From UHGV virus genome UHGV-2031204: 64,000 nucleotides of DNA; one strand, written 5' to 3'. Below, piece after piece: positions 14,889-49,921 of this stretch. How positions within the stretch are numbered: the stretch's first letter is position 1; every line of letters starts with the position of its first letter. The notes under the pieces were generated by a model, which worked only from the letters and a program-made list of their open reading frames with translations, was not told the origin of the DNA and searched no databases. This DNA comes from a virus. The position numbers were made by a program, and so were the translations under genes.

Positions 14889-16946
14889 TTAGACCTCCGT
14901 ACTGTTGCGACGATAAACTTTGATCGTCGTGTTGAACTGCGACAACAGTACACCGCCTTCAGCTTTAATGTCCAGCGTGATAGAGTAGCCATTGGCTTTA
15001 TCGTCCGCTGTCATATACGCACTCGGGGTAATGTCGGCAATATTATCCAGGCGACCTTCCAAACGCTCGGTGATTTTGTTTTCAATCATTTTCGCGCGTT
15101 CGTCGTCCGTCATACGGCTTTCACCGGACATATCTGCCCAAACCTGATCACTGACACGATAAACGTAAGTCAGGATAAAGTTAAACAGTGCATTGTTCAG
15201 CACTGAACGTTCTTCGCTATAGATGGACTGGATAGCTGGGATGAACAAACGATAGTAGTCGCGGGAACGTGCGGTAACCAGAGACACATCCCAGTCGGAT
15301 GCGTAAATCTCGTTACCTTTCCACGGCATACTCAAATCGTACAGATCTTCGATGATCGTCTCTTCACCACGGCTGAAACGATACGCCGGTTTTGCACGTC
15401 CTTCACCGGAACCGAGATACTTCGAGAAGAAGTTCGCAATGCTATAACACATCGGAACCGGTTTCTTGTAGCTCGAGTTACGGATGAATGCAGACTGGCC
15501 AGTAATCATCCCACGGCACGCCGGGGTACCGTAATAGGACGACTCAGGCACGGACGTAATCATTTCGATCAGCGCTGTCTTCACGTTCTCTTCGGTTTGT
15601 AAGTCATTACGACCTTCGTTATAAACGTGAGTACAGAGTGTCAAGAACGTGTTACGAGAACGGCCAATGAAATTGGTCAGCACTTTCTTGGTATCCATGC
15701 TAAAACCGGAGTCCCAGAAGCAGCCTAACGAATATTTCAGTTCGTTATCGTAACGGACTTTACCGCCGTCCGGGAACAGGCTCATCTCACGACGCACGAG
15801 TTTGTCGTAAGCATCGTTACCCATCGTCCCGTCACTACCGCCCTGCAGATAGTGAATATTAGAAGCAGAAAAGACAACTTTACCCACTTCATCAGATGGG
15901 CTAACTTGCAGACCATCGTACATTTGACCGGTTAAATCCAGACCGCCGAAGATATCGACCATATACGGATCGGTAATCGCTGGTTTCGCATTCTGAATTT
16001 TAGACTGTGCCAGTTTCAGAACAGTTTCCAGGTTTTCACGGTAAATGTAGAACTCTTCGAAAGGACCGTAGTCCGGCAGACCGCCGATGTCTGGCATCGT
16101 CTGACGATAGGCATCTGGAACAACGACTTCGAAGTCCAGTTGAGTAGCCATCGGCTGATAGTATGCATCGGGCTTGAAGCTAACATTGATGCTGCTAAGA
16201 CCTTTAATGGTCTTCCAAATTACCGGCGATGTAACCCCTGCTAAGGTTTCAAACCATTGCAGTGCGTACATACGTCCACCTACGTTGGTCTGATAAGCAG
16301 ACGCGATAGATGGGCTGGATTTTTCGTTCAGCGGAACCAGTTTAAAACCGAAACCGTTGACATCAGCACCCGCATACGGGCCTTTAATGTCGAAGATCGG
16401 ATAAAGCTTTGATTTCGCGCTGGTGGTTTCGTCGGTCATTGTCCCTTCAGTAACCACACCTTTTTTCAGGGTGCTTACATCTTCGACAACTTGCAGACGG
16501 AAAACCACTTTCAAGCCATCAACGTCTTCTTTCTTCTTCGGCTTACCGTTAGTTTCATACTGGATAATGCCGTTCACACGCTCGTATGAAGGAACTTTGG
16601 TTTCGAGGACGTCAGCCACCAGACGGACAGCTGCGACTTTCGCATCGTCCGGCACCAGACGCTGATACATACACTCGTTACCATTGGCATTAAACATCGC
16701 CTGGAAGGGTGTGTTGAACGTCGCGTAATCGCCACGCAGGTCGAACAAATCACGACCAAGCAGAGACAATGCATTATCCCCGGATAACGGGAACGCCTCG
16801 TCGTCTACCCCGCGTGATGCAAAGGTGAAGATCAGCGGCTTATGAATCGGATCACCCGTGGGGGTCCGGACAAGCTCAGGGACAGAGTTATCCTGCCACC
16901 CTTGCTTGTTATTCAATGGCGCGCCGTTTCGTGGAATAAAACTCAT
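14889..16946 (-). CDS. hypothetical large protein, probable virion structural component (sheath or capsid class; unresolved)
   Basis: 685-aa minus-strand ORF co-oriented and coupled with 14010..14885; size fits myovirus sheath or major capsid proteins; no diagnostic motif seen. Confidence 0.65.
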   Translation of the reverse strand: MSFIPRNGAPLNNKQGWQDNSVPELVRTPTGDPIHKPLIFTFASRGVDDEAFPLSGDNALSLLGRDLFDLRGDYATFNTPFQAMFNANGNECMYQRLVPDDAKVAAVRLVADVLETKVPSYERVNGIIQYETNGKPKKKEDVDGLKVVFRLQVVEDVSTLKKGVVTEGTMTDETTSAKSKLYPIFDIKGPYAGADVNGFGFKLVPLNEKSSPSIASAYQTNVGGRMYALQWFETLAGVTSPVIWKTIKGLSSINVSFKPDAYYQPMATQLDFEVVVPDAYRQTMPDIGGLPDYGPFEEFYIYRENLETVLKLAQSKIQNAKPAITDPYMVDIFGGLDLTGQMYDGLQVSPSDEVGKVVFSASNIHYLQGGSDGTMGNDAYDKLVRREMSLFPDGGKVRYDNELKYSLGCFWDSGFSMDTKKVLTNFIGRSRNTFLTLCTHVYNEGRNDLQTEENVKTALIEMITSVPESSYYGTPACRGMITGQSAFIRNSSYKKPVPMCYSIANFFSKYLGSGEGRAKPAYRFSRGEETIIEDLYDLSMPWKGNEIYASDWDVSLVTARSRDYYRLFIPAIQSIYSEERSVLNNALFNFILTYVYRVSDQVWADMSGESRMTDDERAKMIENKITERLEGRLDNIADITPSAYMTADDKANGYSITLDIKAEGGVLLSQFNTTIKVYRRNSTEV

Positions 16947-29672: not shown

Positions 29673-29748
29673 GGGGGTGTAGCACAATTGGTAGTGCAGC
29701 GGTCTCCAAAACCGAAGGTTGGGAGTTCGAAACTTCCCGCCCCCGCCA
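29673..29748 (+). tRNA. tRNA-Trp (anticodon CCA)
   Basis: 76-nt cloverleaf read by hand: acceptor GGGGGTG/CGCCCCC, D-arm GCAC-AATTGGTA-GTGC, anticodon loop CTCCAAA, T-arm GGGAG-TTCGAAA-CTTCC, discriminator G, encoded CCA; very similar to E. coli tRNA-Trp. Confidence 0.85.
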
Positions 29749-32978: not shown

Positions 32979-33791
32979 TTACGATTTGAAACGACCGCCT
33001 GACATGTAGTTGTAACGGTTGCCCGAGTCGTCGTTGTGCACCATCGCGCGTTGTAGACGTGGTAAATTGTCGTTGAACATTTCACCCGCATCGGAATAGC
33101 CTTCGATGACATTTTTAAACGCACCGAACTCCATACCGTTTTCGAGACGACCAGAATCCATATCGAAAATCATTTTGTTGTAGATATACTGTTTTGTGGC
33201 GTAAAGTGCCATATCTGCAACAACCGGATAGAAGGCCGGTTTGATTTCGTTTAAGTCTTCAGACATTTCGAATTTAACCTGGAGTTTGGTCGCATAAACG
33301 AACATGCCAGGGTCTTTGATTTTAATCGTGTTAGGTCCAAGCTTTTTCACCTCAGGTGAAGAAATGCGTGGCATTGCAGATTGACTATCCACAACAAATT
33401 GGGTAGAGGCTAGTACACCGGACGTTGCACCATCTAAATAAGACCCAGCAGGCGGTAAAGTATAGGCTTGCCCTGCTACGGGTGTGACGGCCATATGGAC
33501 ATCAAGTATTGGACGTCCACCAGTTTTCATGTCGTCCAGGTAATAGATGCGTGAGTAGTAATCCTGGGTGTCGTTTTCAAAAGGGAGACCCTGTAAATCG
33601 ATCTCTGTGTACTGACCTAAACGAGAGACTTCAGGAATTAAGTATTCCCGAAAAACCTTTTGAGTGATTTCATTGTCCAGCGAACTGGCAACACCAAAGT
33701 TGCGAAGATTTTGAGGTACAAAAGCCGCACGAAGAATCGGTTCGGGAATTTCGCGACGTATTCTCCGTAGACAGTAGTCGATGACGCTCAT
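32979..33791 (-). CDS. hypothetical protein
   Basis: 270-aa minus-strand ORF, divergent from the 33958 gene. Confidence 0.65.
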   Translation of the reverse strand: MSVIDYCLRRIRREIPEPILRAAFVPQNLRNFGVASSLDNEITQKVFREYLIPEVSRLGQYTEIDLQGLPFENDTQDYYSRIYYLDDMKTGGRPILDVHMAVTPVAGQAYTLPPAGSYLDGATSGVLASTQFVVDSQSAMPRISSPEVKKLGPNTIKIKDPGMFVYATKLQVKFEMSEDLNEIKPAFYPVVADMALYATKQYIYNKMIFDMDSGRLENGMEFGAFKNVIEGYSDAGEMFNDNLPRLQRAMVHNDDSGNRYNYMSGGRFKS

Positions 33792-33910: not shown

Positions 33911-33930
33911 TATAGATATTATCTTAATGA
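33911..33930 (+). promoter_or_regulatory. conserved promoter-like element
   Basis: TATAGATATTATCTTAATGA in divergent intergenic region, 27 nt upstream of ATG 33958. Confidence 0.55.
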
Positions 33931-33957
33931 TGTTCCCTTAAAGGAGTATTAACGTTA

Positions 33958-34281
33958 ATGACGCGCGTGCTATTTGGTTTTCTGCTAGACTCTAGCCATT
34001 CAGTTCGCTATCGTCCTGAGGAGATTTTAGAAGCGATACAAGAACTGATTTTTCCGGGTGTTCACAATTTACCTGGAGATCGGTTGAAGGTGGCAGAAAG
34101 ATATTTTGGTTCGGATGCGTGGTTTATGATCAGTGCGTTGGGTCGTGACCACAGTAGTCCTTTCTCTTATAAAAATGGAGTTGTGCAAACGTGGTCAAAA
34201 TACACTTCAATCCAGCTACAGTTTATCATAACTTCTGGGCAGCGATGGAAAAAACATCCTACGCTTCCGCTTTGCGGATGA
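33958..34281 (+). CDS. hypothetical small protein, first gene of a small-gene cluster
   Basis: CTTAAAGGAG leader plus promoter-like motif; 107 aa. Confidence 0.55.
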   Translation: MTRVLFGFLLDSSHSVRYRPEEILEAIQELIFPGVHNLPGDRLKVAERYFGSDAWFMISALGRDHSSPFSYKNGVVQTWSKYTSIQLQFIITSGQRWKKHPTLPLCG

Positions 34282-34817
34282 CAGTAAAAGAAAAACAGGC
34301 CGTTACTGTACAACTGATACACACAGCATTAGAGGATATTTTTCACTCAATCCCCAGAATGCCGAATAGTCGGCTGCCGGATTTTTTAGACCAGTTCACG
34401 GATGCTTACACCCTAACGAATTTACTGGTTGCAGATGGTCGTGTAAAACCACCTAAAACCATGAAGTGTCGTCAGGTTCTTGTCCATCGTTCAGCGTTTG
34501 GTGAAGTTGCAACAGAACAAGAACGTGAGGTTTGTGTCCTACGTTCGAAGACATATCTCCTGGGGTTGGCGTTTGATGACTGTTACGACGGTTTGTTGTG
34601 TGATGTCGAATCTTTAGTTAGGGAAGGGTTTGAGGCTGTCGGGGAAGTTTTCAATCCTTATTTAACGGTTGAGATTGAACCACACCTTACACCGAGAGGT
34701 CAAATTGCGATGATGGAGCTTCGTCTTGGAGAAGATATCCGATTTATCCACTACCGGAACTGTTTCCCGGATAAAAGATACGATCCGGATTACCTTACTC
34801 GATCACGTGACGTATAA
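34278..34817 (+). CDS. hypothetical protein
   Basis: Start taken at the ATGA overlap with the upstream stop (ORF track starts at 34191). Confidence 0.5.
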   Translation: MTVKEKQAVTVQLIHTALEDIFHSIPRMPNSRLPDFLDQFTDAYTLTNLLVADGRVKPPKTMKCRQVLVHRSAFGEVATEQEREVCVLRSKTYLLGLAFDDCYDGLLCDVESLVREGFEAVGEVFNPYLTVEIEPHLTPRGQIAMMELRLGEDIRFIHYRNCFPDKRYDPDYLTRSRDV

Positions 34818-35157
34818 GGCGTACCAGCGTATACTCGCGGACGAAAGGTTGTCATCGTATTCAGGGACAGATGCTGAACAGTTAAAATATGTCATACTGT
34901 CCCTACTGGAGTATCTCATTCCTAATTTTACGGAATCGGGAATGTGGGATGCTAACTGTGCTGCAACGATAGTACGGTCTTATCGACCTCGGTCTACAGA
35001 GGAAGATGTTCGTCTGATAACATCTTACGTCCGTGGTGCACTATGTGAGGAAATGGGCATTCCTCCCAAAGGGTGGCGTTTTTATTATCGGATAGACGGA
35101 CATTTTCTTCGTTTTATTCCAAAGAAGGTAACGGATGTTTATGACGATCTTTATTGA
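34726..35157 (+). CDS. hypothetical protein (start uncertain)
   Basis: ORF overlaps the previous gene by 92 nt in another frame; in-frame GTG at 34807 is an alternative start. Confidence 0.4.
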   Translation: MEKISDLSTTGTVSRIKDTIRITLLDHVTYKAYQRILADERLSSYSGTDAEQLKYVILSLLEYLIPNFTESGMWDANCAATIVRSYRPRSTEEDVRLITSYVRGALCEEMGIPPKGWRFYYRIDGHFLRFIPKKVTDVYDDLY

Positions 35158-35542
35158 GTTTCCGTGGACAACTGCAGAAATTCTGAAGGTAATAAAACGC
35201 GCCGCGTATCTTCAATACCTGGATGTTTCGGATACAGTAGATTATTACGTAGAACAGCTCGTTAGGCTGGAGGTATTACGTCGAAAGTATTGCATCGACG
35301 AACTTACAGTACGTGAGCTGTTTGCGGACATTATTCGGCGGTATCCGATTGTAGAATCGGAGAGTCCGAACAGTTACTGTATTAATCATGTTATTGAAGT
35401 TGAGCTTCTGAATTCAGTGTCGTTATGGGCGCGACTTGAAGAAGAAGTGGTGGTTTTACCGAATGAAGGTTTTCTTCTGTTCCACACAGGTTCTGGCGTT
35501 TGGCGAATGTTTACAACAGGAGGGGTAGCGTATGGTGCGTGA
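35135..35542 (+). CDS. hypothetical protein
   Basis: 135-aa ORF, 23-nt overlap with upstream gene. Confidence 0.5.
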   Translation: MFMTIFIEFPWTTAEILKVIKRAAYLQYLDVSDTVDYYVEQLVRLEVLRRKYCIDELTVRELFADIIRRYPIVESESPNSYCINHVIEVELLNSVSLWARLEEEVVVLPNEGFLLFHTGSGVWRMFTTGGVAYGA

Positions 35543-36041
35543 GAGTTATTTTATCATACCTGACTATCAATTTATTTGCGGACCGCTGACGGAGTTTGAT
35601 CCGAACGCGATATTGCGCGAAGTCTGTACCGATTTAAATACGGTACTGAATTATGTTTGGGAGTATGCGTTAACGGGGCACTTCCCGAAGTTAAATCGTT
35701 ACGCGTTACAAGGAACGTTTGATTTTATTGGACGGGAACTTAACAGCCACGGCGTCTTGTTGGAGGGTGAGCGTGCGTTAGAGTATGTAAGAGCGACGCA
35801 GGAGGTAGCGAAGGCTTTTGTGACAGCGGTGTCGACAGAGCCGTACTGGTTTACACGATACGGCCAGTGGATAGGTGCACGTTATTGTGCACAAAAGCCT
35901 GGCGCGGTAGAGTTCCTTGTAAGGTACGAAGAGGTGAAGTATCCTGAATACGAGGAACCCGCTTTGTTACAACAACTCACCCCAAAAATACAAACGCTTA
36001 CAGAAATGTTGCTGGGTAATCTGGCTGGGAAGGTCTTATAA
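35532..36041 (+). CDS. hypothetical protein
   Basis: 169-aa ORF with GGAGGGG RBS, 11-nt overlap. Confidence 0.55.
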   Translation: MVRESYFIIPDYQFICGPLTEFDPNAILREVCTDLNTVLNYVWEYALTGHFPKLNRYALQGTFDFIGRELNSHGVLLEGERALEYVRATQEVAKAFVTAVSTEPYWFTRYGQWIGARYCAQKPGAVEFLVRYEEVKYPEYEEPALLQQLTPKIQTLTEMLLGNLAGKVL

Positions 36042-36547
36042 TGCAGTATGTTTATTACGTCGCGCAAGAGGTACAAAGTTACGGTAGAACCCGTTTTTAC
36101 GAAGCAGTACGTGATGTGTTGGTGGACGTTTTAGAAACGAATCGTTTAGACGTTTTCGAACACGATATTCGTCGACTCTATGAAGACTTCGGTACCGCAT
36201 ACATTATCGCGGCGAAGTCCCATAATCCCGAGTTGTTAAAAGAACTGCTTACTGTTACTGCATACGACGAAAATGCTATTCCTGGCGAAACCGTAGAAAG
36301 TATCACCTTCCTTTCTACGATAGGTGATGAAGACAGTCATCTTGCGGCAATTTGTCACGCGGCGGATATTCTACAGCGTGAGCTCCAGTCGCAGACAGGA
36401 TTGGCTGCGTTAATTAATTCTATGTTTCCTGGTTCATTGACGCGTTGGATTGGGGAAACATTCAGCGATCTGGTGTTGGTCTGCTATGAAACTGTTTATG
36501 GAAATTTCGGAAGTGTATCTCCCGGAACGCCTACATTCGCGGGTTGA
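36041..36547 (+). CDS. hypothetical protein
   Basis: 168-aa ORF, TAATG stop-start overlap. Confidence 0.5.
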   Translation: MQYVYYVAQEVQSYGRTRFYEAVRDVLVDVLETNRLDVFEHDIRRLYEDFGTAYIIAAKSHNPELLKELLTVTAYDENAIPGETVESITFLSTIGDEDSHLAAICHAADILQRELQSQTGLAALINSMFPGSLTRWIGETFSDLVLVCYETVYGNFGSVSPGTPTFAG

Positions 36548-36917
36548 GAATGCGGATATTGGTTCGGTAGCACCGTATATGGCGTACTGGTTCCTGGCGA
36601 AGTATGCAGAAGAATCTGTACGTTCAGTGGTACGTCGTTTGGGTGAGGGTGAAACGTTTCTGACGTTCATCCCACCCAACCATCAATTTATTTTCACACA
36701 ACTAGCACAACTGTTCTCAGTCGATGAAGTGCGTATATTCTCCCATTCTTTGTTGCAGTTTGAAATAGAAAAGGATGTGGACTATTTTCGTATCCGTAAT
36801 TTGGTGGAAACACTCTGGCGACAGTCTGGGTTAACGCCGGAAGAAGGATCGAAGAAAACCAAAGTATCTTTGTTTATGAATGAGATTGGGAGTGGTTTTA
36901 TTTGCATAGAGGTTTGA
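36450..36917 (+). CDS. hypothetical protein (start uncertain)
   Basis: ORF overlaps the previous gene by 98 nt; a later in-frame ATG near 36579 is possible. Confidence 0.4.
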   Translation: MGKHSAIWCWSAMKLFMEISEVYLPERLHSRVENADIGSVAPYMAYWFLAKYAEESVRSVVRRLGEGETFLTFIPPNHQFIFTQLAQLFSVDEVRIFSHSLLQFEIEKDVDYFRIRNLVETLWRQSGLTPEEGSKKTKVSLFMNEIGSGFICIEV

Positions 36918-37532
36918 ATGTACAAAGTACGGGGTGATCATTTCATCCGTCCGAACTTAGGGTTACTGGAATACGCCACAGGTGGCGATTTCTATAAAGA
37001 TAAGTTAGTAAGAACCCTAATGCGCTTTCGCTGTATGCGAGTGTCTTTTCCTGCAACGATAGAGACGACGGATGAAGCAACGCGATATATCAATACCGCG
37101 ATTAGCGAGTTATCGAAAGCGTGTAACTTTCCTGGCAATAAAAGGGAACTGAAAGAGTTAGACAGTTACCTGAAACGGTTAAACGATGAATACCGGCAGT
37201 GGGAATTTAACTCAATGATGGAAACCAGTTATACGGAAGACATGATTGAGGATATGCGACCCCTCCTGGAAATCTATGAGTTATGTAAAATACAAGGCGG
37301 GTCTTCTTGGGATGTGTTGCGTGAACACGCGATAGAAATTCTTCGCGATAATATTCTCCAGATTTACGAGAATGATTGCGAACCCGTTATCCAGCTCTTT
37401 CGTACCGCACACAAATGTGGTATTGAGGGCCTGTGTTTAAACTTATCGTTACACGATGACTTAGGTACCGTTTCAGGTGTTTACGCTACGTTCCATCTGG
37501 ACATCACAATGTTGAGGAGTGATAATGTTTGA
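36918..37532 (+). CDS. hypothetical protein
   Basis: 204-aa ORF, TGAATG junction with upstream gene. Confidence 0.55.
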   Translation: MYKVRGDHFIRPNLGLLEYATGGDFYKDKLVRTLMRFRCMRVSFPATIETTDEATRYINTAISELSKACNFPGNKRELKELDSYLKRLNDEYRQWEFNSMMETSYTEDMIEDMRPLLEIYELCKIQGGSSWDVLREHAIEILRDNILQIYENDCEPVIQLFRTAHKCGIEGLCLNLSLHDDLGTVSGVYATFHLDITMLRSDNV

Positions 37533-37938
37533 TTTTAGTAACATTGAACCAGGGTCTATCGTAAATATTGTTTACGATACCCCGTTAAAAGGTAATGAAA
37601 CGCGAGTGCGTGTACTCGCGTCTAAAGTCGGCTATGAGTTTGCAAAAACCGCAGGCGAAGATCTGGCTGCTATCCAGAAGAACATTTATTCGTCGTTAGT
37701 AGCACAACCTTCAAATGACCTCACTGCGTATAACTATATGCTGTTCCGCGATTCTACAGGTAAAGTAGGCGTTGCGGCAGATGCATGGGTACGCGAAGTA
37801 AGGGTAATTACCAGTTTGACAGCACGTTTTGTTGTACAGCTCGATAACAAGCAGGAGAAAGAAGACCTGGAAGCTGCGTTGGCAGCACGTGGGTTTAATG
37901 ATGTGGAAATCGAGATCATTGAAAACGCGGCAGGTTAA
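37519..37938 (+). CDS. hypothetical protein
   Basis: 139-aa ORF with GAGGAG RBS; strong terminator follows. Confidence 0.6.
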   Translation: MIMFDFSNIEPGSIVNIVYDTPLKGNETRVRVLASKVGYEFAKTAGEDLAAIQKNIYSSLVAQPSNDLTAYNYMLFRDSTGKVGVAADAWVREVRVITSLTARFVVQLDNKQEKEDLEAALAARGFNDVEIEIIENAAG

Positions 37939-37943
37939 TCGAA

Positions 37944-37985
37944 AATGTCCTCTCTTCGGAGAGGACATTCTTCTTTCTTTTTTTT
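37944..37985 (+). terminator. intrinsic terminator
   Basis: AATGTCCTCTCTTCGGAGAGGACATT hairpin followed by T-rich run. Confidence 0.75.
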
Positions 37986-38039
37986 CACGTTACCCACCCT
38001 CCTTATAGCCGAGTTAAACTGCCTTTTTAGAGGACAGCC

Positions 38040-40352
38040 GTGGAATACATTTCTCCTTTTCGTTTAACGGTAGATGAATACCATCGTGATATCGATGTCA
38101 ACGATGCCTACCGCGAACAAGTCGCGTTATACATTCATAACGTGACAGCACAAAAATACCCTTTAGAGTTTTGTCGTCAGGAAGTTGATGCTCTTATTGC
38201 ACCTGGCGGTGAGTTAGCAACTGAATCTCCTGTGTGTAAGATGTGGGTGCGTAATCAGAAAACGGGCGATCGTGAGGAAAAATACACAACCGTCGATAAG
38301 TTATTTAAAACCGTCATTGACAAACAGATTATCTCCGCACCTTCGTTAACTTTTTATTTGCCCGAACACGTCAAACGTTCTAAGTTATCTGAATTCACAG
38401 CAGCTAACGTAGCGAAACGTGCCGCGGTAAAAAAGGAAATGTTTGCTGCTGCAGCAGCAGGCAATGAAGTATTAAAGATCAACAAAAAGAACGAACAGAA
38501 CGCGGTCAAGACGCTGAATAACGGAATGTCGGGTGCATTTTCCTCTCCGTACACGATTATTTTCAACCAGTCTTCACACTCCGTACTAACGTCCACTTGT
38601 CGTACTGCAACTTCGTTCGGCAATGCTGGTAATGAACGTTTATTAGGCGGTAATCGGCATTACGATACCCCGTCGCGTATTATCGATCATTTCTTATCTA
38701 TCGGTACCTTAACCGATTGGAATAGCTTTAAGAAATGTATGGAGACGTATGAGCTTCATTACCCGTCGGTAGAAGAGGTGATGGAAGTTATTCATTATTC
38801 TGCCGATTTCTACTTTAAGAGCGAAGCGGGGATGGAGTTCGTTGAGCATTACGTTAGTAATGTATCGCCGTTGACGCGTGCCGCGTTTGTTTACATGGGT
38901 GATTTTTTCCACCTGGCGAAATACAACGATAAGTTCATGCGCGACTTTATTGGCGCATTGATTACCCCTGATGTGCGTGTTGATACTGAGGGCTGGACTG
39001 ATACGGACTGGGTTGCTGCTGAGAAGACCATCGATGGTGATATGCAGATTATTATCTCACAGTTCCGTACCGACGTAGTACCGATGGGTAAGGCGTTCAG
39101 TGACGTTAAGAAATTTGACGGTAATAAAAAACCCTTGCCGTGGGATCAGCAGGACGGTTATAAAGAACTAATTCGTTCCGCGTTGTTCTTACAGAAAACG
39201 ATCGGTAAATACGCACTACTGATTCGCAATATTCTTACCACGAAAAATTTACCGATCAATATTGCCCGAATGCCGGATGTGGTTCGTCGTGTAGGTGTAG
39301 TGTCTGATACTGACTCTACAATGATGACTGCGCAATGGTGGGCAATCTGGTACACCGGTAAACATTACGGTGAAGTAGCGACCCGTGTTTCCAATGCGAT
39401 GATCTATATTGCGACACAGCACTTACGACATTTGATGGCGAGCATGTCAGCAAACATCGGTGTGGCGAAGGAGCGTTTGTTCCTGTATGCAATGAAGAAC
39501 GAATTTAAGTTTGATTCGTTTGCACTGACTACCAAAGCAAAACATTACTTCTCGTTGATTACCGGACAGGAAGGCCAGCTGAAAAAAGATCCCGAGCTGG
39601 AAGTAAAAGGTGTGTCTTTACGTACATCTAACATTCCTCCGATTATCATGAAGGAGTTTAAGAACACCATCAAAGGGTTATGTGAAGTTGTTGCCCGTGG
39701 TGATCAGATCGAAATCATTCCGTTGCTGGAAAAGGTTGCCCAAATCGAACACACGATTATGGATTCTATTCGTTCTGGGAATCCAGGGTATTTGAAAACG
39801 ACTAACATTAAGGAACGTAGCGCTTATAACGAGAAGGATGAAAAGAACTACCATTACCACCGAATGTATAATGCTATCTTTGGTCCGAAGTTTGGTTATT
39901 TGGAAGAACCGCCCTACGATGCTGTGAAACTTCCGGTAACGTTGGAAAACAAAACGAAGATTAAAGAATGGATTGACAGTATCGAAGATCCGATTATCAA
40001 GAACGGTGCATCGGCGTGGTTTGAGGAGACAAATTTCCGTAAATATAAAACGTTGATTCTACCAGAGCATTTGGTGGAAAACTACGGTATTCCTAAAGAA
40101 CTGATCGATATCGCAGATATCCGTCGTACTGCTTTCTCTACGGTTGAACCGTATTATCACATTCTTGAATGCTTAGGTGTGTTCATGATGGATAAGAATA
40201 GGATGAGACTGTTATCAGATTTCTACGATAGAGTCGAGGAAGAAGACGAGCTGTACAAGGAATTAGCAGAAGTACAATACGTTAAGAAATCGGAGAGGGC
40301 AGGAGATGACGAAGAAGATGAAGACGAAGAAGAGGTTTTTGACGACGAGTGA
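38040..40352 (+). CDS. hypothetical large protein with poly-acidic C-terminal tail
   Basis: GTG start after GAGGA; 770 aa; VGVVSDTDSTMM segment; C-terminus AGDDEEDEDEEEVFDDE. Confidence 0.7.
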   Translation: MEYISPFRLTVDEYHRDIDVNDAYREQVALYIHNVTAQKYPLEFCRQEVDALIAPGGELATESPVCKMWVRNQKTGDREEKYTTVDKLFKTVIDKQIISAPSLTFYLPEHVKRSKLSEFTAANVAKRAAVKKEMFAAAAAGNEVLKINKKNEQNAVKTLNNGMSGAFSSPYTIIFNQSSHSVLTSTCRTATSFGNAGNERLLGGNRHYDTPSRIIDHFLSIGTLTDWNSFKKCMETYELHYPSVEEVMEVIHYSADFYFKSEAGMEFVEHYVSNVSPLTRAAFVYMGDFFHLAKYNDKFMRDFIGALITPDVRVDTEGWTDTDWVAAEKTIDGDMQIIISQFRTDVVPMGKAFSDVKKFDGNKKPLPWDQQDGYKELIRSALFLQKTIGKYALLIRNILTTKNLPINIARMPDVVRRVGVVSDTDSTMMTAQWWAIWYTGKHYGEVATRVSNAMIYIATQHLRHLMASMSANIGVAKERLFLYAMKNEFKFDSFALTTKAKHYFSLITGQEGQLKKDPELEVKGVSLRTSNIPPIIMKEFKNTIKGLCEVVARGDQIEIIPLLEKVAQIEHTIMDSIRSGNPGYLKTTNIKERSAYNEKDEKNYHYHRMYNAIFGPKFGYLEEPPYDAVKLPVTLENKTKIKEWIDSIEDPIIKNGASAWFEETNFRKYKTLILPEHLVENYGIPKELIDIADIRRTAFSTVEPYYHILECLGVFMMDKNRMRLLSDFYDRVEEEDELYKELAEVQYVKKSERAGDDEEDEDEEEVFDDE

Positions 40353-41696: not shown

Positions 41697-41731
41697 TTGA
41701 AAAATATCTGAGAAAGATATTATCTATGTGA
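41697..41731 (+). promoter_or_regulatory. conserved promoter-like element, extended copy 1 of 2
   Basis: TTGAAAAATATCTGAGAAAGATATTATCTATGTGA in divergent intergenic region. Confidence 0.55.
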
Positions 41732-41776: not shown

Positions 41777-41811
41777 TTCTAAAATATCTTAGCTAGATAT
41801 TATCTACGTGA
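41777..41811 (+). promoter_or_regulatory. conserved promoter-like element, extended copy 2 of 2
   Basis: TTCTAAAATATCTTAGCTAGATATTATCTACGTGA, 43 nt upstream of ATG 41855. Confidence 0.55.
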
Positions 41812-41854
41812 ACCAACACTACAATTGTATTAAACCTTATAAGGATTAAGTAAA

Positions 41855-43702
41855 ATGGCTAAAGAGTTTATTGACAATCAAAACGACGTTGTGACTGGTG
41901 CTGCTGGTTCCGCTGCAGATCCAATTCCGTCTTTCGGTGGCGCGGGAGCTGCTACTGTGGATAATACCAATGCGGCCAACGCTTTTGGTGGGATGTCTAA
42001 AAACATCTCTACTTTCGATAAAGCTTTCGGATACATGTCTTTCGTGTCCACTGCTTCTCAGTTCACCAGCCTGATTGAGAAGATGGCGGAGAAGAATACA
42101 TACCTGCGTAACTTCCGTTGGGGTGTTATTGACGGCATCAACTCTGAAATGGGTTCTGCTGCATACGTGGCTGGTCCGTCTGGCGATAACCATAACGAAT
42201 GGCTCTACGGCATCCTGTTCTTTGAACATGGCCAGTCCATCCGTTTCTACGAAATCAACGGTAAAGAAAACTACTACACCCTGGCGCAGCTGTTCAGCCA
42301 AGAAGGTGTGATGAACAACATCACTAACCAGATTGCAACTCAGCACAACCTGCCAAGCGTACAGTTCATGGTAATGAACTGCGTACCGGAACTGGGTAAA
42401 ACCATGAACGAAGAATGGGCTAACCAGCTCATGGGCCAGATTGCACTGGGTATCTTCGGTCGTCATTCCGGCTACCTGGGCTACCTGAAAATGACCCGTT
42501 CTGATCGCTTCACCGCGCAAGTCAGCGTAGTTGAAGAAGGTTCTGTAACTGATGTTAACGGTTCTGCACAACGTGCTGACCTGATGGTTGTGGTTGACCA
42601 TACTCGCACCGGCAACAACGATAATAACCCGACGCTGTTCTCTTCTGAACGCCTCCAGAATTATCCGAGCGTTGCAGGTGTTGGTTACATCAACCTCCGC
42701 CATAAAGGTAAACCTCAGACCCTGACTAACGGTACTCAGGACCTGCGTCAGCTGGAAGCCGAAGTGGTTGTTTCCCTGATGGATTCTCAGTCCTCTGGGG
42801 CAATGGCACCTATCGAGCGTCAGCTGATTGAACTGGCCGCGTTCGCACAAATCGCCACTATCGGTGGCTGGCGTGAACGTTTCATGCAGTCGCTGAACAA
42901 AACCGATCGCCGCTTCTCCCGCGTTCTGGAGTATGTAGAATGGGGCAGCGAAAAACCTGACCTGAGCAAAATCGACGGTAACCGTGAAGTTATCGAGAAA
43001 TGCCTGGACACCTTCGCTAACCCGACTGCGGCCCTGGTGGTGAACCATCGTGCAGGTAACGGTATCGGTGGTCTGTCTACTCTCCTGAGCGAAATCGGGA
43101 TGGGTAACACCAACGCACTGTACACCCTGTTCAATATCCTGGATAACATGGCCAGCAACGGCGCGACTAAGTTCAGCACTCGCTTCAAAGCACTGCTGGG
43201 CAATGTCACCAACTTCGAGTGCAAACACGTTGTTATTGCCGGTTGCCCGACCATCTCTGGCCAGTATTTCAGCAACAGCCAGAAACGCAGCTTCCAGGAT
43301 ATGGACTTGGTTTCCGCTCTGACTAAAGTGGGTGATAACCAACGCGATGCGATCGACTACATCAGTGCACAGTCCTACTCTCACCGCTATCTGAATGCGC
43401 GTGACCAGCGTCTGTACCTGCTGAAAATGGCTGCGTCCATGTTCGGTAGCAAACAGCCGCAGGTAACGGGTGAAGCGTCTGACCTGGCGATCAATCCGCT
43501 GTTTGGTAAAGCACTGGTGGAATACATTACTGAAAACTGCAACTTCCAGGTGAATGGTGTTACCGCAGCGAACAGCCTCACTCACTCTGTGTTTGTTAAC
43601 ACGGGTAATGAGAACTTCGCGCTGTCTGGTAGCGGTCCTAACGCATTTGGTAGCGATTTCGGTATGTCCTTCGCTGCAACTGACTGGCGTCCGACTTTCT
43701 AA
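41855..43702 (+). CDS. highly expressed protein; candidate chimallin-like phage-nucleus shell protein (alternative: another abundant major protein)
   Basis: 615 aa; markedly host-optimal codon usage (CTG, CGT, GGT, AAC, TTC, ATC) unlike neighbours; two promoter-like motifs upstream; strongest terminator in window downstream; Gly/Ala-rich flexible N- and C-termini; no alignment possible. Confidence 0.35.
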   Translation: MAKEFIDNQNDVVTGAAGSAADPIPSFGGAGAATVDNTNAANAFGGMSKNISTFDKAFGYMSFVSTASQFTSLIEKMAEKNTYLRNFRWGVIDGINSEMGSAAYVAGPSGDNHNEWLYGILFFEHGQSIRFYEINGKENYYTLAQLFSQEGVMNNITNQIATQHNLPSVQFMVMNCVPELGKTMNEEWANQLMGQIALGIFGRHSGYLGYLKMTRSDRFTAQVSVVEEGSVTDVNGSAQRADLMVVVDHTRTGNNDNNPTLFSSERLQNYPSVAGVGYINLRHKGKPQTLTNGTQDLRQLEAEVVVSLMDSQSSGAMAPIERQLIELAAFAQIATIGGWRERFMQSLNKTDRRFSRVLEYVEWGSEKPDLSKIDGNREVIEKCLDTFANPTAALVVNHRAGNGIGGLSTLLSEIGMGNTNALYTLFNILDNMASNGATKFSTRFKALLGNVTNFECKHVVIAGCPTISGQYFSNSQKRSFQDMDLVSALTKVGDNQRDAIDYISAQSYSHRYLNARDQRLYLLKMAASMFGSKQPQVTGEASDLAINPLFGKALVEYITENCNFQVNGVTAANSLTHSVFVNTGNENFALSGSGPNAFGSDFGMSFAATDWRPTF

Positions 43703-43731
43703 TAAGTTGGTAAGTAGTAAGCAGTAGTTGA

Positions 43732-43774
43732 GGGACAGGGGAAAACCCCCTGTCCCTTCCCTCTCTTTTTTTGT
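43732..43774 (+). terminator. strong intrinsic terminator after the codon-optimised 615-aa gene
   Basis: GGGACAGGGGGAAAACCCCCTGTCCC hairpin followed by TTCCCTCTCTTTTTTTG. Confidence 0.85.
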
Positions 43775-43786
43775 TGAGGATTCGGC

Positions 43787-45394
43787 GTGGAACATAAACT
43801 AGAATATTACGGGATTTCGGGGCGACTAATTAGTCACGACAAGATGTTACGTGACTGTATACAAGAAGCGGAGGAAAAAGGCTACAAACCACCGATTATT
43901 ATCAATGACGTTGCTGCAACGATGGATACCATCGAAGCGTCGGAGATGATTAACCAAATACTCCAAAACCGAATCGTTGATGAAACACTCAACTCGGCTC
44001 CTATTTGCAGTCTGACCTGCGAATCACCTATTACCCATCGTTATAATCTTGGGCTACGTTGCCCACATTGCGGACATGTTGTTTCTGAACATCGGATTAC
44101 GTCCGATGTCTGGTTACGCGCCCCCGATGAGATGGGTAACTTTATCAATCCACGTTTTTGGTCTCTCTTTAATGCCTTCTTTGGCTCTAAGCTGAAAAAA
44201 TTTAATCGTAACAAAGTGACGGTAGAGCGCGGGTCTGATTTACTGCTGTGGCTAATCGATCCGTACTACCATCCAGAAAAGGACGAAGGAACACGTGCTC
44301 GCGTGGTGAAAAGAATACTCGGCGAACATGGCTTCGAACGGGGAATTCGAAACTTTATCGACCACCATCGAACCGTCTTTAATATCCTTACGTCCCCGGA
44401 AGCTTGGAAGGAGATTTATCCGCCAACGAAAAATAACCGTTATGAGAGTGAGCGCGTACGCTTAGAATGGCGTGAGTTCTTTCAGGAACAATCGTTCTCA
44501 TTCTTTCCAAGACACCTTCCGATTATTTCATCAAAACTGATCGTTACGGAGGAACGTCGACAAGGTATTTTTATCGATCCGGTTTATACCAGCGCTATCG
44601 ACGCAGTAAAAAATGTGGCGTTGTTGTACACGAATGCACGTCGTATCGAACCACGATTTATTATTCGTCGCGCAATCAAAGCGAATCGACAGCTTGCGTA
44701 TTTCTATATTGACCATCGTCAGGAAGTGATGGAAGGTAAACCTGGGTTCTATCGGGCAAAACTCGGGTCAACACACGTACCGTGGGGCGGACGTGTGACT
44801 ATCTCTCCTATCTCTGAACCTCACGATGCGTTGAAAGTTATTGCGCCTTGGCGTTGGTTGGTTCCGTTGGCGAGTGTTCACATCGAGAACAAGTTAGGTC
44901 GTCGTGATTATACACCTCGACAATGTGAGCGCATTATTGCATTTGCGGCAATGCAGTATGTACCGCTGGTACATGAAATTATTAATGAGTTGATTAAAGA
45001 ATCCCCCGGCGGATTCGGCTTAATGTTGGAAGTTCTGCGTAACCCAACATTGGTTCAACTTTCTATTCAGACATTGTTCATCTCAGCGGTACTGACAGAT
45101 GTAACACAATGTTCTCTGCGTATTTCTGATCGTGTCATCAAAGCGCCTAACGCTGATTTCGATGGCGACCAGTTACAATGCAGATTGGCAATCGACCAGA
45201 TTGAAATGGAACTGGGCATGGCTTATCGCCCAGACAACGGGTTTATGTCAAGCACGAATGTGGACGAGGTTTCGAGTTGTATGATTCTCCATAACGAGAA
45301 TATCAGCAACATAAACAGTTTCTTCCAGGATACTGAAGAGGACTTGGAAGCCGGTATCGCGCTTGACTCTGAATTATTAAAATTGGCGGGGTAA
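43787..45394 (+). CDS. multisubunit RNA polymerase beta-prime subunit, N-terminal module
   Basis: Canonical APNADFDGDQLQ catalytic motif near the C-terminus; Cys cluster CSLTCE...CPHCGH (zinc-binding-like); GTG start. Confidence 0.85.
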   Translation: MEHKLEYYGISGRLISHDKMLRDCIQEAEEKGYKPPIIINDVAATMDTIEASEMINQILQNRIVDETLNSAPICSLTCESPITHRYNLGLRCPHCGHVVSEHRITSDVWLRAPDEMGNFINPRFWSLFNAFFGSKLKKFNRNKVTVERGSDLLLWLIDPYYHPEKDEGTRARVVKRILGEHGFERGIRNFIDHHRTVFNILTSPEAWKEIYPPTKNNRYESERVRLEWREFFQEQSFSFFPRHLPIISSKLIVTEERRQGIFIDPVYTSAIDAVKNVALLYTNARRIEPRFIIRRAIKANRQLAYFYIDHRQEVMEGKPGFYRAKLGSTHVPWGGRVTISPISEPHDALKVIAPWRWLVPLASVHIENKLGRRDYTPRQCERIIAFAAMQYVPLVHEIINELIKESPGGFGLMLEVLRNPTLVQLSIQTLFISAVLTDVTQCSLRISDRVIKAPNADFDGDQLQCRLAIDQIEMELGMAYRPDNGFMSSTNVDEVSSCMILHNENISNINSFFQDTEEDLEAGIALDSELLKLAG

Positions 45395-49837: not shown

Positions 49838-49860
49838 GTGTATGTGTGTAGAATACAGTC

Positions 49861-49893
49861 GAAGTTATCTGAGATAGATTTTATCTTAGTGGA
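49861..49893 (+). promoter_or_regulatory. conserved promoter-like element
   Basis: GAAGTTATCTGAGATAGATTTTATCTTAGTGGA, 28 nt upstream of ATG 49922. Confidence 0.5.
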
Positions 49894-49921
49894 CGACTAT
49901 GTTATTCCTGGAGATTTTAAA

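Follow-up and report, generated by a model that had tools for sequence, protein, structure and literature searches.

In the analysed DNA, a 64,000-nucleotide stretch of virus genome UHGV-2031204 (the window) from a nucleus-forming jumbo phage that is SPN3US-like but divergent, positions 33912-37986 form a single conserved transcription unit composed of an AT-rich phage-specific promoter motif, nine genes and an intrinsic terminator. The reading considered fairly probable as a whole is that of a conserved early SPN3US-like unit with a dual-coding overlap, in which genes 1-8 encode intracellular replication or nucleus factors and no anti-defence cargo. According to this proposal the injected virion RNA polymerase would read ATAGATATTATCT as an early promoter, and downstream initiation sites embedded in upstream genes would couple translation and set the ratio in which the products of genes 1, 2 and 3 are made. 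Genes 1-8 would be clade-specific non-virion factors for replication or the nucleus compartment, would correspond in position to phiKZ gp43-gp48, which include Imp2 and Imp4, and would not be dispensable.

Table 1. Features of the nine-gene transcription unit (window coordinates).
Feature	Position	Strand	Counterpart or basis
Promoter motif ATAGATATTATCT, predicted early virion-RNAP promoter	33912..33924	+	34 nt 5' of gene 1 ATG
Gene 1, 107 aa	33958..34281	+	SPN3US gp9 ortholog (RefSeq tag gp257); phrog_9874
Gene 2, 208 aa, GTG start	34191..34817	+	SPN3US gp10 ortholog; phrog_8359
Gene 3, likely 143 aa from TTG	34726..35157	+	SPN3US gp11 ortholog; phrog_8134
Gene 4, 133 aa	35141..35542	+	SPN3US gp12 ortholog; phrog_9510
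Gene 5, 169 aa	35532..36041	+	SPN3US gp13 ortholog; phrog_8024; 11-nt overlap with gene 4
Gene 6, 168 aa	36041..36547	+	SPN3US gp14 ortholog; phrog_8126; TAATG junction with gene 5
Gene 7, 143 aa, ATG start	36486..36917	+	SPN3US gp15 ortholog; phrog_9694
Gene 8, 204 aa	36918..37532	+	SPN3US gp16 ortholog; phrog_8007
Gene 9, 137 aa, SH3DP	37525..37938	+	SPN3US gp17 and phiKZ gp49 ortholog
Intrinsic terminator, stem AATGTCCTCTC / GAGAGGACATT, UUCG loop, then T-rich run	37944..37986	+	Terminator scan

Nine plus-strand open reading frames fill positions 33958-37938, flanked by a divergently transcribed DUF7484 virion gene and, downstream, by a DNA polymerase gene; the same nine occur on four IMG/VR contigs. 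The block is 1:1 orthologous to SPN3US gp9-gp17 with the order kept, and collinear with nine further reference phages as well. Its concatenated proteins match 63 phage records (48 of them with at least 80% coverage) in five named genera, from phages infecting Salmonella, Escherichia, Proteus, Erwinia and Cronobacter. SPN3US, Erskinevirus, Machinavirus, Wellingtonvirus, Derbicusvirus and other Seoulvirus members have 1:1 orthologs ordered as in the window, and such relatives share with it the DUF7484 gene on the opposite strand, the DNA polymerase gene downstream, the promoter motif, the terminator position and the embedded start of gene 2. All nine genes are real, protein-coding and under purifying selection: comparison of their cores outside the overlaps with a 97%-identical relative gives dN/dS values of 0.00-0.37. 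Identity to SPN3US amounts to 28-58% for the block proteins versus 77-80% for the flanking proteins; the best GenBank phage is Asesino, with an overall identity of at most 48%, and a nucleotide-level match to the window was not found in INPHARED. The block is an ordinary conserved module rather than an accessory island.

The preliminary description had placed nine small genes between a promoter-like motif near 33911 and a strong terminator at 37944, and the reading frames, the motif and the hairpin could each be confirmed. The sequence ATAGATATTATCT has 13 matches in the window (up to two mismatches) versus 1.16 expected, a number reached in none of 100 shuffles. Other copies sit 40-60 nt 5' of further operon starts, two copies precede the gene of chimallin (ChmA, nuclear shell), and the motif 5' of the gene 1 ortholog is kept in 14 of 14 genomes compared. 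In RNAP-encoding jumbo phages, early virion-RNAP operons are marked by such a promoter class (review PMC7598289). The motif fits this description, and by analogy it is regarded as a putative early promoter used by the injected virion RNA polymerase. At the other end, the terminator hairpin (37944-37969) has an 11-bp stem closed by the UUCG loop and followed by a T-run; hairpin and T-run directly 3' of the gene 9 stop recur in all 14 genomes, with stems that differ in sequence and are GC-rich and tetraloop-closed throughout. Within the unit, the junction overlaps are 0, 1, 8, 11 and 17 nt, in addition to three long ones; the TAATG at 36041 and the TGAATG at 36918 are as first described.

The preliminary description saw in such small early genes candidates for host takeover or anti-defence; as accessory factors of this kind, each would act on a host target. 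Such a role would be in keeping with transcription that appears early-promoter driven, with small non-virion proteins without Pfam domains, with the fast evolution of genes 4, 6, 7 and 8, as in an arms race, and with families restricted to one phage clade even among 5.8 billion proteins. On the other hand, anti-defence loci are usually mosaic and host-specific, and there was no presence/absence variation here: the nine genes stand in constant order in the 63 records and five named genera, which does not support variable cargo. Furthermore, gene 9 is a family-wide core gene, and the dN/dS range given above, reaching from zero to 0.37, yields no sign of positive selection. Host takeover or anti-defence is accordingly judged an unlikely function of the block.

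A different context is provided by the order DUF7484 (minus strand), small-gene array, SH3DP, DNA polymerase, minus-strand gene, ChmA and nvRNAP, which recurs in other jumbo phages and is shared wholly or partly by phiKZ, phiPA3, 201phi2-1, Noxifer, D6, RAY, Eowyn and pAEv1810. In phiKZ, gp43-gp49 occupy the same genomic address, from the gp42 (DUF7484) homolog to the DNA polymerase. Like the block in the window, this array has the genes of ChmA and of the nvRNAP beta' subunit a short distance away (a few genes), belongs to a layout of 7-9 small plus-strand genes with SH3DP last, contains long annotated overlaps (128 and 59 nt) and has members of narrow phylogenetic range. Two of them, orf47 (Imp2) and orf48 (Imp4), are cargo-specific nuclear import factors of narrow distribution (bioRxiv 10.1101/2024.03.27.586873), and disruptive transposon insertions are tolerated in neither (PMC12676376). 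The block proteins diverge fast relative to their flanks, in agreement with the limited range that Imp2 and Imp4 are reported to have. Demonstrable homology between the two arrays, however, is confined to gene 9 and gp49: comparison of genes 1-8 with phiKZ gp43-gp48 and with the arrays of other clades gave hhalign probabilities of at most 7% and no phmmer match, genes 5 and 8 show no fold similarity to the phiKZ proteins, and the gene sizes of gp43-gp48 do not match. Genes 1-8 are clade-restricted and fast-evolving by sequence comparison, have no known fold and are taken to be non-virion; position alone is weak evidence for their function.

The label of unknown function, given to all nine genes at first, still applies to genes 1-8 but not to gene 9. 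The product of the latter matches Pfam PF20287 (E-value 1e-30, 106 bits, cut-off 25) and the phiKZ gp49 family (hhalign probability 97.8%), which identifies it at the profile level as the widely conserved SH3DP, which has an SH3 fold and is a partner of phage DNA polymerases. Knock-down of phiKZ gp49 caused a strong plaque-formation phenotype (PMC12571901). In SPN3US, SH3DP (gp17) is present in virions and apparently absent from tail-less particles (PMC5105663 Table S4), and this virion presence fits awkwardly with a purely replicative role.

It might be supposed from such data that the entire block is a virion or assembly module like DUF7484 and SH3DP, with genes 1-8 encoding chaperones or low-copy structural proteins. 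SPN3US gp8 and gp17 were found in purified virions, phiKZ gp42 and gp49 carry a structural label, and mass spectrometry detected gp73 and gp81 of 201phi2-1. None of gp9-gp16, however, is among the 83 proteins of the SPN3US virion proteome, in which gp8 and gp17 do appear (PMC5105663 Table S4), the promoter, which the block has in common with the chimallin gene, speaks for early and not for late expression, and those phiKZ proteins of the corresponding location that have been characterised serve in import, not in assembly. A virion or assembly role is regarded as improbable, and intracellular factors remain the preferred reading of genes 1-8.

For the long overlaps, three explanations had been put forward, of which overprinting is retained for gene 1/gene 2 and probably for gene 2/gene 3, a mis-called start for the site at 36450, and frameshifting for none. 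The view that the overlaps at large are artefacts, that is, mis-called starts or sequencing frameshifts splitting longer genes, seems very improbable, although it holds for the start at 36450 and could draw on the RefSeq entry of SPN3US, with its short non-overlapping gp10 and gp11, and on the ATGA at 34278, which has the look of a classic coupling site and occurs in the majority of lineages. All frames and stops are retained in the 97%-identical contig and in three 72%-identical contigs, and none of the relatives compared has the fewer, longer genes that would betray sequencing errors; sequencing frameshifts are therefore excluded. Two of the long-overlap junctions had been wrongly assigned: the one at 34278 is in fact an overlap of 91 nt, and the one at 36450 shrinks to 62 nt.

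Gene 1 (Shine-Dalgarno AAGGAG at 33941-33946) is 54% identical to its SPN3US counterpart and 91% to that of the IMG/VR relative L003, with a PHROG E-value of 6e-42 and a dN/dS of 0.13-0.29. Within its 3' end a GGAG (34177-34180) precedes the GTG of gene 2 at 34191 with a spacer of 10 nt, and with this start the junction, originally described as ATGA coupling, becomes the 91-nt overlap, with gene 2 in the -1 frame. In every genome checked (13 and CR5) the gene 2 start column holds GTG or ATG with GGAG or GGGG 10 nt 5', whereas the ATGA start is wholly missing in three genera (Caitlin, ChrisDB, Kwan). With the 29-aa extension, the PHROG score of gene 2 rises from 201 to 245 bits and the profile is covered from position 1. 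Codon-position divergence across the overlap was compared in five sister pairs: third positions of gene 1 diverge by 0.348 outside the overlap versus 0.072 inside (Fisher p = 3e-12), the values by gene 2 codon position 1/2/3 are 0.072/0.034/0.189, and in the Derbicus/CR5 pair nine of nine substitutions fall on gene 2 third positions. Gene 1 is frozen at its synonymous sites, and what varies upstream of the ATGA does so according to the gene 2 frame, which refutes an artefact for this pair and rules out a gene 2 start at 34278. Start codon, Shine-Dalgarno sequence and open frame of gene 2 are present in 11 of 11 genomes tested; a synonymous-recoding null gives this a probability of 0.05-0.18 per genome, or 9e-7 when multiplied across six clades. 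RNA structure as the cause of conservation is not indicated in the overlap (folding z-score ~0). Judged from these substitution patterns, both frames are translated, i.e. the overlap is genuine dual coding. Annotations of gene 2 orthologs are inconsistent, the SPN3US form being short and those of ChrisDB, Derbicus and CR5 long. The size range given in the preliminary description (up to 208 aa) already presupposes the long form.

In the case of gene 3, the best candidate and most likely start is TTG 34726, which follows a GGAG (34715-34718) with a 7-nt spacer and would give a 92-nt overlap with gene 2. Substitutions fit the gene 3 frame from ~34786 to the gene 2 stop and 45 nt past it, and the PHROG profile begins at residue 22 (34789); the first ~20 codons past the TTG evolve, at the amino-acid level, as if the gene 2 frame alone counts. 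ATG, GTG and TTG are absent between 34726 and 34807, the TTG at 34726 being the sole canonical candidate there. Of 14 genomes, 12 have ATG in the consensus column of gene 3 or else TTG/GTG after GGAG, and start plus Shine-Dalgarno sequence was found in 8 of 12 (null 0.05-0.09 for most). In the window, the consensus start column of the family has lost its ATG; the consensus N-terminal codon is ATT here and CTG in SPN3US. Since several relatives carry an ATG at this later column, a shorter gene 3 from the near-cognate ATT 34789, or from GTG 34807, is possible. A start at 34849 was excluded, and an artefact is opposed, by selection on the gene 3 frame on both sides of the gene 2 stop. Of the overlap reported at 34726, coding of the gene 3 frame before the gene 2 stop thus stands on comparative grounds and the TTG start itself is plausible; the overlap is probably true overprinting.

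Gene 4 (PHROG E-value 4e-39) overlaps gene 3 by 17 nt; an alternative start at ATG 35135 was rejected, as it is absent in the close relative L002 and the SPN3US alignment begins at the second Met. The TTG at 36450, formerly taken as the start of gene 7, was discarded as well: the 72%-identical relative L003 has an in-frame TGA before the conserved ATG 36486, the PHROG profile begins at residue 13 of the 36450 form (36486), and the ATG column is kept in 11 of 11 genomes with the gene recovered. The 62-nt overlap with gene 6 persists because the latter ends in a lineage-specific tail, its last 20 codons. In SPN3US the gene 6 homolog stops one residue past the conserved ...VVLIC, which makes an ATGA junction with a 4-nt overlap; this type of stop was lost in the window's clade through a 1-nt register difference, and the tail measures between 1 and 21 aa, depending on the genus. 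The overlap can thus be attributed, from these alignments, to a drifting gene 6 stop codon. Gene 8 is the fastest-evolving member, with 52% identity to L003 versus 93-95% for the flanking genes and only eight homologous clusters in 5.8 billion proteins. In a Foldseek search of BFVD, its AlphaFold model (pLDDT 85) matched its own family only, and the gene 5 model had two remote matches beyond its own family in BFVD and generic helical matches only in the PDB.

Programmed frameshifting, by which gene 1-gene 2 (-1) and gene 2-gene 3 (+1) fusions would arise with downstream frames devoid of their own initiation, would suit the relative frames, the onset of the downstream conserved regions within the overlaps and the non-canonical consensus codon of gene 3, but is barely credible, because in most or all lineages each downstream gene is equipped with a start codon and a Shine-Dalgarno sequence of its own, and a conserved slippery heptamer (X XXY YYZ) was not found in the overlaps inspected; the sole A-run (TGG AAA AAA CAT, 34244-34255) does not lie in register and is not conserved in L003, and folding z-scores of ~0 revealed no stimulatory RNA structure.

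Overprinted or coupled genes are classical in phages, e.g. the phiX174 overlaps, lambda Rz/Rz1, the MS2 lysis gene and the ATGA coupling of T4 and T7. In common with these, two frames of the same DNA are translated in gene 1/gene 2, the downstream initiation site lies inside the upstream gene and variation at synonymous sites is suppressed where the two genes coincide. Unlike the classical cases, the genes overlap by their ends alone (85-115 nt, depending on the genome) and neither gene is nested whole; the shared stretch encodes the first 29 aa of one protein and the last 30 aa of the other, and, set against those cases, it is kept in every clade compared.

The DNA polymerase ORF (770 aa) shares 80% identity with its SPN3US counterpart and has homologs in 299 jumbo-phage records; the gene order around it is that of SPN3US and phiKZ. 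A megablast search of INPHARED with the region returned no nucleotide-level match, in IMG/VR one contig reaches 97% nucleotide identity and three others about 72%, and a Salmonella enterica assembly has among its annotated proteins a copy of one block protein at 94% identity. On account of these matches, the phage is, by its sequence, a new and divergent SPN3US-like nucleus-forming jumbo phage, and its host is probably Salmonella. The features of the region, including chimallin (ChmA), the protein of the nuclear shell, and the phage RNA polymerase (nvRNAP), are compiled in the table.

Features of the nine-gene block and its surroundings (window coordinates)
Feature	Coordinates	Strand	Remarks
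tRNA-Trp (CCA)	29673-29748		sole RNA gene detected in the window
DUF7484 gene	32979-33791	-	first in the shared gene order, before the nine-gene block
Motif ATAGATATTATCT before gene 1	33912-33924		candidate early promoter
Nine-gene block	33958-37938	+	after the DUF7484 gene, before DNA polymerase
Gene 1/gene 2 junction	predicted gene 2 start GTG 34191	+	91-nt overlap
Gene 2/gene 3 junction	most likely gene 3 start TTG 34726	+	92-nt overlap
Gene 3/gene 4 junction	gene 4 start 35141	+	17-nt overlap
Gene 4/gene 5 junction		+	11-nt overlap
Gene 5/gene 6 junction		+	TAATG, 1-nt overlap
Gene 6/gene 7 junction	predicted gene 7 start ATG 36486	+	62-nt overlap
Gene 7/gene 8 junction		+	TGAATG, 0 nt
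Gene 8/gene 9 junction	gene 9 start 37525	+	8-nt overlap
Hairpin, then T-run	hairpin 37944-37969		predicted intrinsic terminator
Element TTCACGT-N13-CTTATAGCCGAG	37984-38013		possible promoter or regulatory site
DNA polymerase	38040-40352		GTG start
353-aa gene		-	between DNA polymerase and chimallin
Tandem motif copies before chimallin	41713-41725, 41793-41805
Antisense ORF over chimallin gene	41846-43795	-	649 aa, codon-aligned
Chimallin (ChmA)	41855-43702	+	before nvRNAP beta' subunit
nvRNAP beta' subunit			last in the shared gene order, after chimallin
Motif copy within called ORF	49874-49886

Each of the nine ORFs has a syntenic SPN3US ortholog, gp9 to gp17 in the original numbering (Table S1, PMC5105663), at identities of 28-58%. 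A tblastn search with the concatenated block proteins found the entire block collinear in 63 phage records spanning Seoulvirus, Erskinevirus, Machinavirus, Wellingtonvirus and Derbicusvirus, in most of which it is annotated as nine hypothetical proteins, and the gene order of the block is identical in 10 reference phages. Genes 1-8 match phrog_9874, 8359, 8134, 9510, 8024, 8126, 9694 and 8007 over their full length and in syntenic order (E-values 1e-34 to 1e-73), and purifying selection acts on each of the nine genes (dN/dS 0.00-0.37 in the non-overlapping cores). The preliminary description had placed nine small genes between a promoter-like motif and a terminator, and this anatomy holds: the ORFs fill the interval, and both motif and hairpin are real. 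Fewer, longer genes in homologous phages, which it had named as the sign that would refute it, were looked for and are absent from every relative. The block is very probably an early operon whose genes are tightly coupled. The feature, though real, is ordinary: it adds a divergent new member to a block that had already been annotated, and taken alone it amounts to a conserved module of hypothetical proteins; the useful yield of the analysis lies in corrected gene models, in a conserved dual-coding overlap, with probably another, and in a testable positional link to the import factors of the phage nucleus.

The junctions of the block were compared in 14 genomes, including five sister pairs with 73-82% nucleotide identity. 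Between genes 1 and 2, an ATGA at 34278 had been proposed as the coupling junction, but its ATG is absent from Caitlin, ChrisDB and Kwan, and every genome checked has a gene 2 start codon 87 nt upstream of it (GTG in eleven genomes, ATG in Machina, Derbicus and CR5), each preceded by GGAG or GGGG 10 nt to the 5' side. In the sister pairs, divergence at gene 1 third positions is 0.348 outside the overlap and 0.072 inside (p = 3e-12), and within the overlap it amounts to 0.072, 0.034 and 0.189 at the first, second and third codon positions of gene 2, respectively; in the Derbicus/CR5 pair, all nine of the nine substitutions in the overlap fall on gene 2 third positions. The 29-residue N-terminal extension raises the PHROG score of gene 2 by 45 bits. 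The combination of start codon, Shine-Dalgarno sequence and open gene 2 frame was present in 11 of 11 genomes tested, for which a null of synonymous recoding of gene 1 gives 0.05-0.18 per genome and, multiplied across six clades, 9e-7. As to a cause at the RNA level for the frozen overlap, there was no Rfam match in the region, and folding z-scores were about 0. Because of the conserved start and Shine-Dalgarno sequence, the divergence pattern of the second frame, the gain in PHROG score and the recoding null, the assignment of the gene 2 start to GTG 34191, with a predicted product of 208 aa, can be regarded as settled, and the overlap with gene 1 is, on the comparative evidence, true dual coding, kept in every clade compared.

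A related pattern is found at the other end of gene 2, whose last 36-60 nt evolve with the periodicity of gene 3: divergence in this tail is 0.23, 0.12 and 0.03 at gene 3 codon positions 3, 1 and 2, and only 2 of 69 gene 2 third positions have diverged there vs 100 of 200 elsewhere (p = 1e-14). As judged by these substitutions, the start of gene 3 must lie upstream of the gene 2 stop. TTG 34726, which has a GGAG at a 7-nt spacing, is the sole canonical upstream start for gene 3 in the window; a comparable start with Shine-Dalgarno sequence occurs in 8 of 12 genomes (null 0.05-0.09 for most), and synonymous sites of gene 2 are suppressed over the stretch from 34726 (0.18 vs 0.50, p = 2e-6). It is the most likely start of gene 3 on these grounds. 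Residue 22 of the long ORF, at 34789, is where the PHROG profile of gene 3 sets in; this column reads ATT in the window, CTG in SPN3US and ATG in Asesino, phiEaH2 and SNUABM29, and either this ATT or GTG 34807 is a possible alternative start. A short gene 3 from TTG 34849, as the SPN3US annotation would suggest, was rejected, since the 31 nt before that codon evolve as coding sequence in the gene 3 frame. Of the overlap first described for 34726, coding in the gene 3 frame ahead of the gene 2 stop is borne out, but the amino acids encoded in that frame between 34726 and about 34785 are without conservation. The gene 2/gene 3 overlap is probably a second conserved dual-coding overlap.

At the gene 6/gene 7 junction, the start previously called at TTG 36450 is a mis-call, since an approximately 72%-identical IMG/VR relative carries an in-frame TGA just 5' of the conserved ATG 36486. 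Gene 7 begins at this methionine in the PHROG profile and in every genome with the gene recovered, so that its predicted start can be taken as fixed; an overlap with gene 6 remains. In the clade of the window phage, gene 6 reads 20 codons beyond a conserved end in ...VVC, whereas SPN3US stops at ATGA; across genera the tail is anywhere from 1 to 21 aa long, and it looks like the product of a drifting stop. The TAATG and TGAATG junctions (gene 5/gene 6 and gene 7/gene 8) are as first described. Programmed frameshifting, which had been raised for the long overlaps, is rejected because the downstream frames possess initiation signals of their own, and the overlaps inspected contain neither a conserved slippery heptamer nor a stimulatory structure (folding z-scores about 0).

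Public annotations disagree on the gene starts of the block, with short forms in the SPN3US RefSeq entry and long forms in other phages. In the former, gp256 and gp255 (original gp10 and gp11; 3230 and 3795) appear to be called too short, and the annotation of phiEaH2 omits the orthologs of genes 1 and 2 (1501-2387) although the ORFs are intact.

The motif ATAGATATTATCT ahead of gene 1 occurs in 13 copies in the window, at up to 2 mismatches, vs 1.16 expected. Its + strand copies precede, by 40-60 nt, operon starts that have a strong Shine-Dalgarno/ATG pair, the chimallin gene is preceded by two copies in tandem, and the copy upstream of the gene 1 ortholog is kept in 14 of 14 genomes. In jumbo phages that encode RNA polymerases, early promoters of the virion RNAP are described as phage-specific, AT-rich motifs some 10 nt long that precede early operons (PMC7598289). 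In agreement with this published description, the motif is conserved, AT-rich and recurs before operons, and by analogy we infer that it may act as an early virion-RNAP promoter. Both copies before chimallin are partly palindromic and thus also match on the - strand. A further copy, together with a GGAG, stands between the GTG at 49838, where an ORF was called, and an ATG near 49921, which is the probable true start of that ORF.

Directly 3' of the gene 9 stop, a terminator scan identified a GC-rich hairpin followed by a T-run; the arrangement recurs in 14 of 14 genomes with different stem sequences, as in a stem maintained by compensatory change, and the hairpin is taken to be a genuine, if predicted, intrinsic terminator. 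The interval from this terminator to the polymerase start codon (GTG) contains the element TTCACGT-N13-CTTATAGCCGAG, conserved in 12 of 14 genomes and present once within the window. It may represent another class of promoter or a site that regulates the polymerase gene; when TTCACGT-N13-CTTATAGC was tried as a second promoter class, no further copy was found in the window.

Gene 9 is the one member of the block with a recognizable family. It matches the Pfam profile PF20287 (SH3DP, an SH3-fold protein associated with phage DNA polymerases) over positions 1-122 of 122 with an E-value of 1.1e-30 and 106.3 bits (cut-off 25), and it matches phiKZ gp49 with an hhalign probability of 97.8%. Its stop at 37938 and the polymerase start at 38040 are adjacent, an arrangement also present in SPN3US, phiKZ, RAY, Eowyn, 2050HW and pAEv1810. 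By these profile matches, gene 9 is a full-length member of the SH3DP family, homologous to phiKZ gp49, which is described as an SH3-domain interactor of DNA polymerase and whose antisense knock-down causes a strong phenotype (PMC12571901). In SPN3US, both gp8 (the DUF7484 ortholog) and gp17 (the SH3DP ortholog) are virion proteins, and no spectra of gp17 were counted in am27 sup- particles, from which many tail proteins are missing as well (PMC5105663 Table S4). The virion location of gp17 is unexpected for a protein named after its association with DNA polymerase.

Genes 1-8, on the other hand, match only PHROG families of unknown function. A Pfam scan returned nothing at threshold (a DUF4719 match to gene 5 was rejected at 13.6 bits vs a cut-off of 27), and neither BLASTP nor hhalign detected paralogy among the nine block proteins. 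In profile searches of 5.8 billion proteins, gene 8 found only 8 clusters and gene 5 only 25, every one of them from this clade. The virion proteome of SPN3US, 83 proteins in all, includes none of the orthologs gp9-gp16 (PMC5105663 Table S4). Genes 1-8 diverge faster than their neighbours, with gene 8 at 52% identity between contigs whose flanking genes are at 93-95%. AlphaFold models are confident for gene 5 (pLDDT 88) and gene 8 (pLDDT 85), and the gene 8 model found no structural relative in BFVD beyond its own family. Matches of gene 5 in BFVD to proteins of 201phi2-1, Noxifer and Phabio had probabilities of at most 0.3 and were not accepted as evidence; a 276-aa protein of 201phi2-1, equal in length to the Imp2 homolog gp79, gave a probability of 0.08 and a TM-score of 0.2, i.e. 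noise.

In every Chimalliviridae genome examined, 6-11 small + strand genes lie directly upstream of SH3DP and DNA polymerase, and such an array was seen in phiKZ, phiPA3, 201phi2-1, D6, Noxifer, RAY, 2050HW, Eowyn and pAEv1810. Wherever it can be identified, the DUF7484 gene is on the - strand upstream of the array; in SPN3US-like and Pseudomonas phages the array begins directly after it, whereas in RAY, 2050HW and Eowyn PhuZ sits between the two. Long annotated overlaps occur in the arrays of phiKZ (15964-16937; gp44.1/gp45 128 nt, gp45/gp46 59 nt), Eowyn (58 nt) and pAEv1810 (44 nt). SH3DP is the only detectable homolog between the arrays of the different clades: genes 1-8 have no homology to the block families of phiKZ, phiPA3, 201phi2-1, D6 and Noxifer by BLASTP and hhalign, nor to the arrays of RAY, 2050HW, Eowyn and pAEv1810 by phmmer and hhalign.

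The two genes before SH3DP in phiKZ, Imp2 (orf47) and Imp4 (orf48), encode cargo-specific nuclear import factors, whose conservation was reported only among related Pseudomonas phages (bioRxiv 10.1101/2024.03.27.586873), and neither tolerated disruptive transposon insertions (PMC12676376). Like Imp2 and Imp4, genes 1-8 stand in an array just 5' of SH3DP and DNA polymerase. The favoured reading of their function, held with low confidence, is that their products are clade-specific, non-virion factors that would serve the nucleus or replication compartment, as positional counterparts of phiKZ gp43-gp48. Because the array position is shared and two phiKZ array genes are insertion-intolerant import factors, SPN3US gp9-gp16 form a well-delimited group of candidates, amenable to genetics, for functions related to the nucleus in a phage of enterobacteria. 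The narrower proposal, that genes 1-8 are the SPN3US-clade equivalents of the import adaptors Imp2 and Imp4 and that the overlaps fix a subunit ratio, is distinctly improbable; comparison of the Imp2 and Imp4 families with genes 1-8 gave hhalign probabilities of at most 1.1% and nothing by BLASTP. If it were true, each lineage of nucleus-forming phages would keep a fast-evolving, lineage-specific adaptor or licensing array in this one position beside SH3DP and DNA polymerase, and the conserved start-in-gene overlaps would set the production ratio of cooperating subunits (genes 1, 2 and 3). The suggestion of host-takeover or anti-defence factors, made when the cluster was first described, fits poorly with a block in which neither content nor order varies among the relatives examined, across five named genera, and which lacks the variable gene content expected of an accessory island; the family libraries scanned with the block proteins were Pfam and PHROGs.

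A last observation concerns the chimallin gene downstream, the whole of which is spanned by the long antisense ORF listed in the table. Corresponding ORFs over ChmA extend over 657 codons in SPN3US, 661 in Klebsiella phage Eowyn and 643 in Aeromonas phage pAEv1810, and are short in phiKZ (81) and RAY (283). In the window, the codons TTA, CTA and TCA are wholly absent from ChmA, where 22 would be expected (P about 6e-12); of the 46 leucine codons of the gene, 39 are CTG. The absence of these three codons accounts for the length of the antisense ORF, which is a by-product of extreme codon optimisation of ChmA and not a gene.
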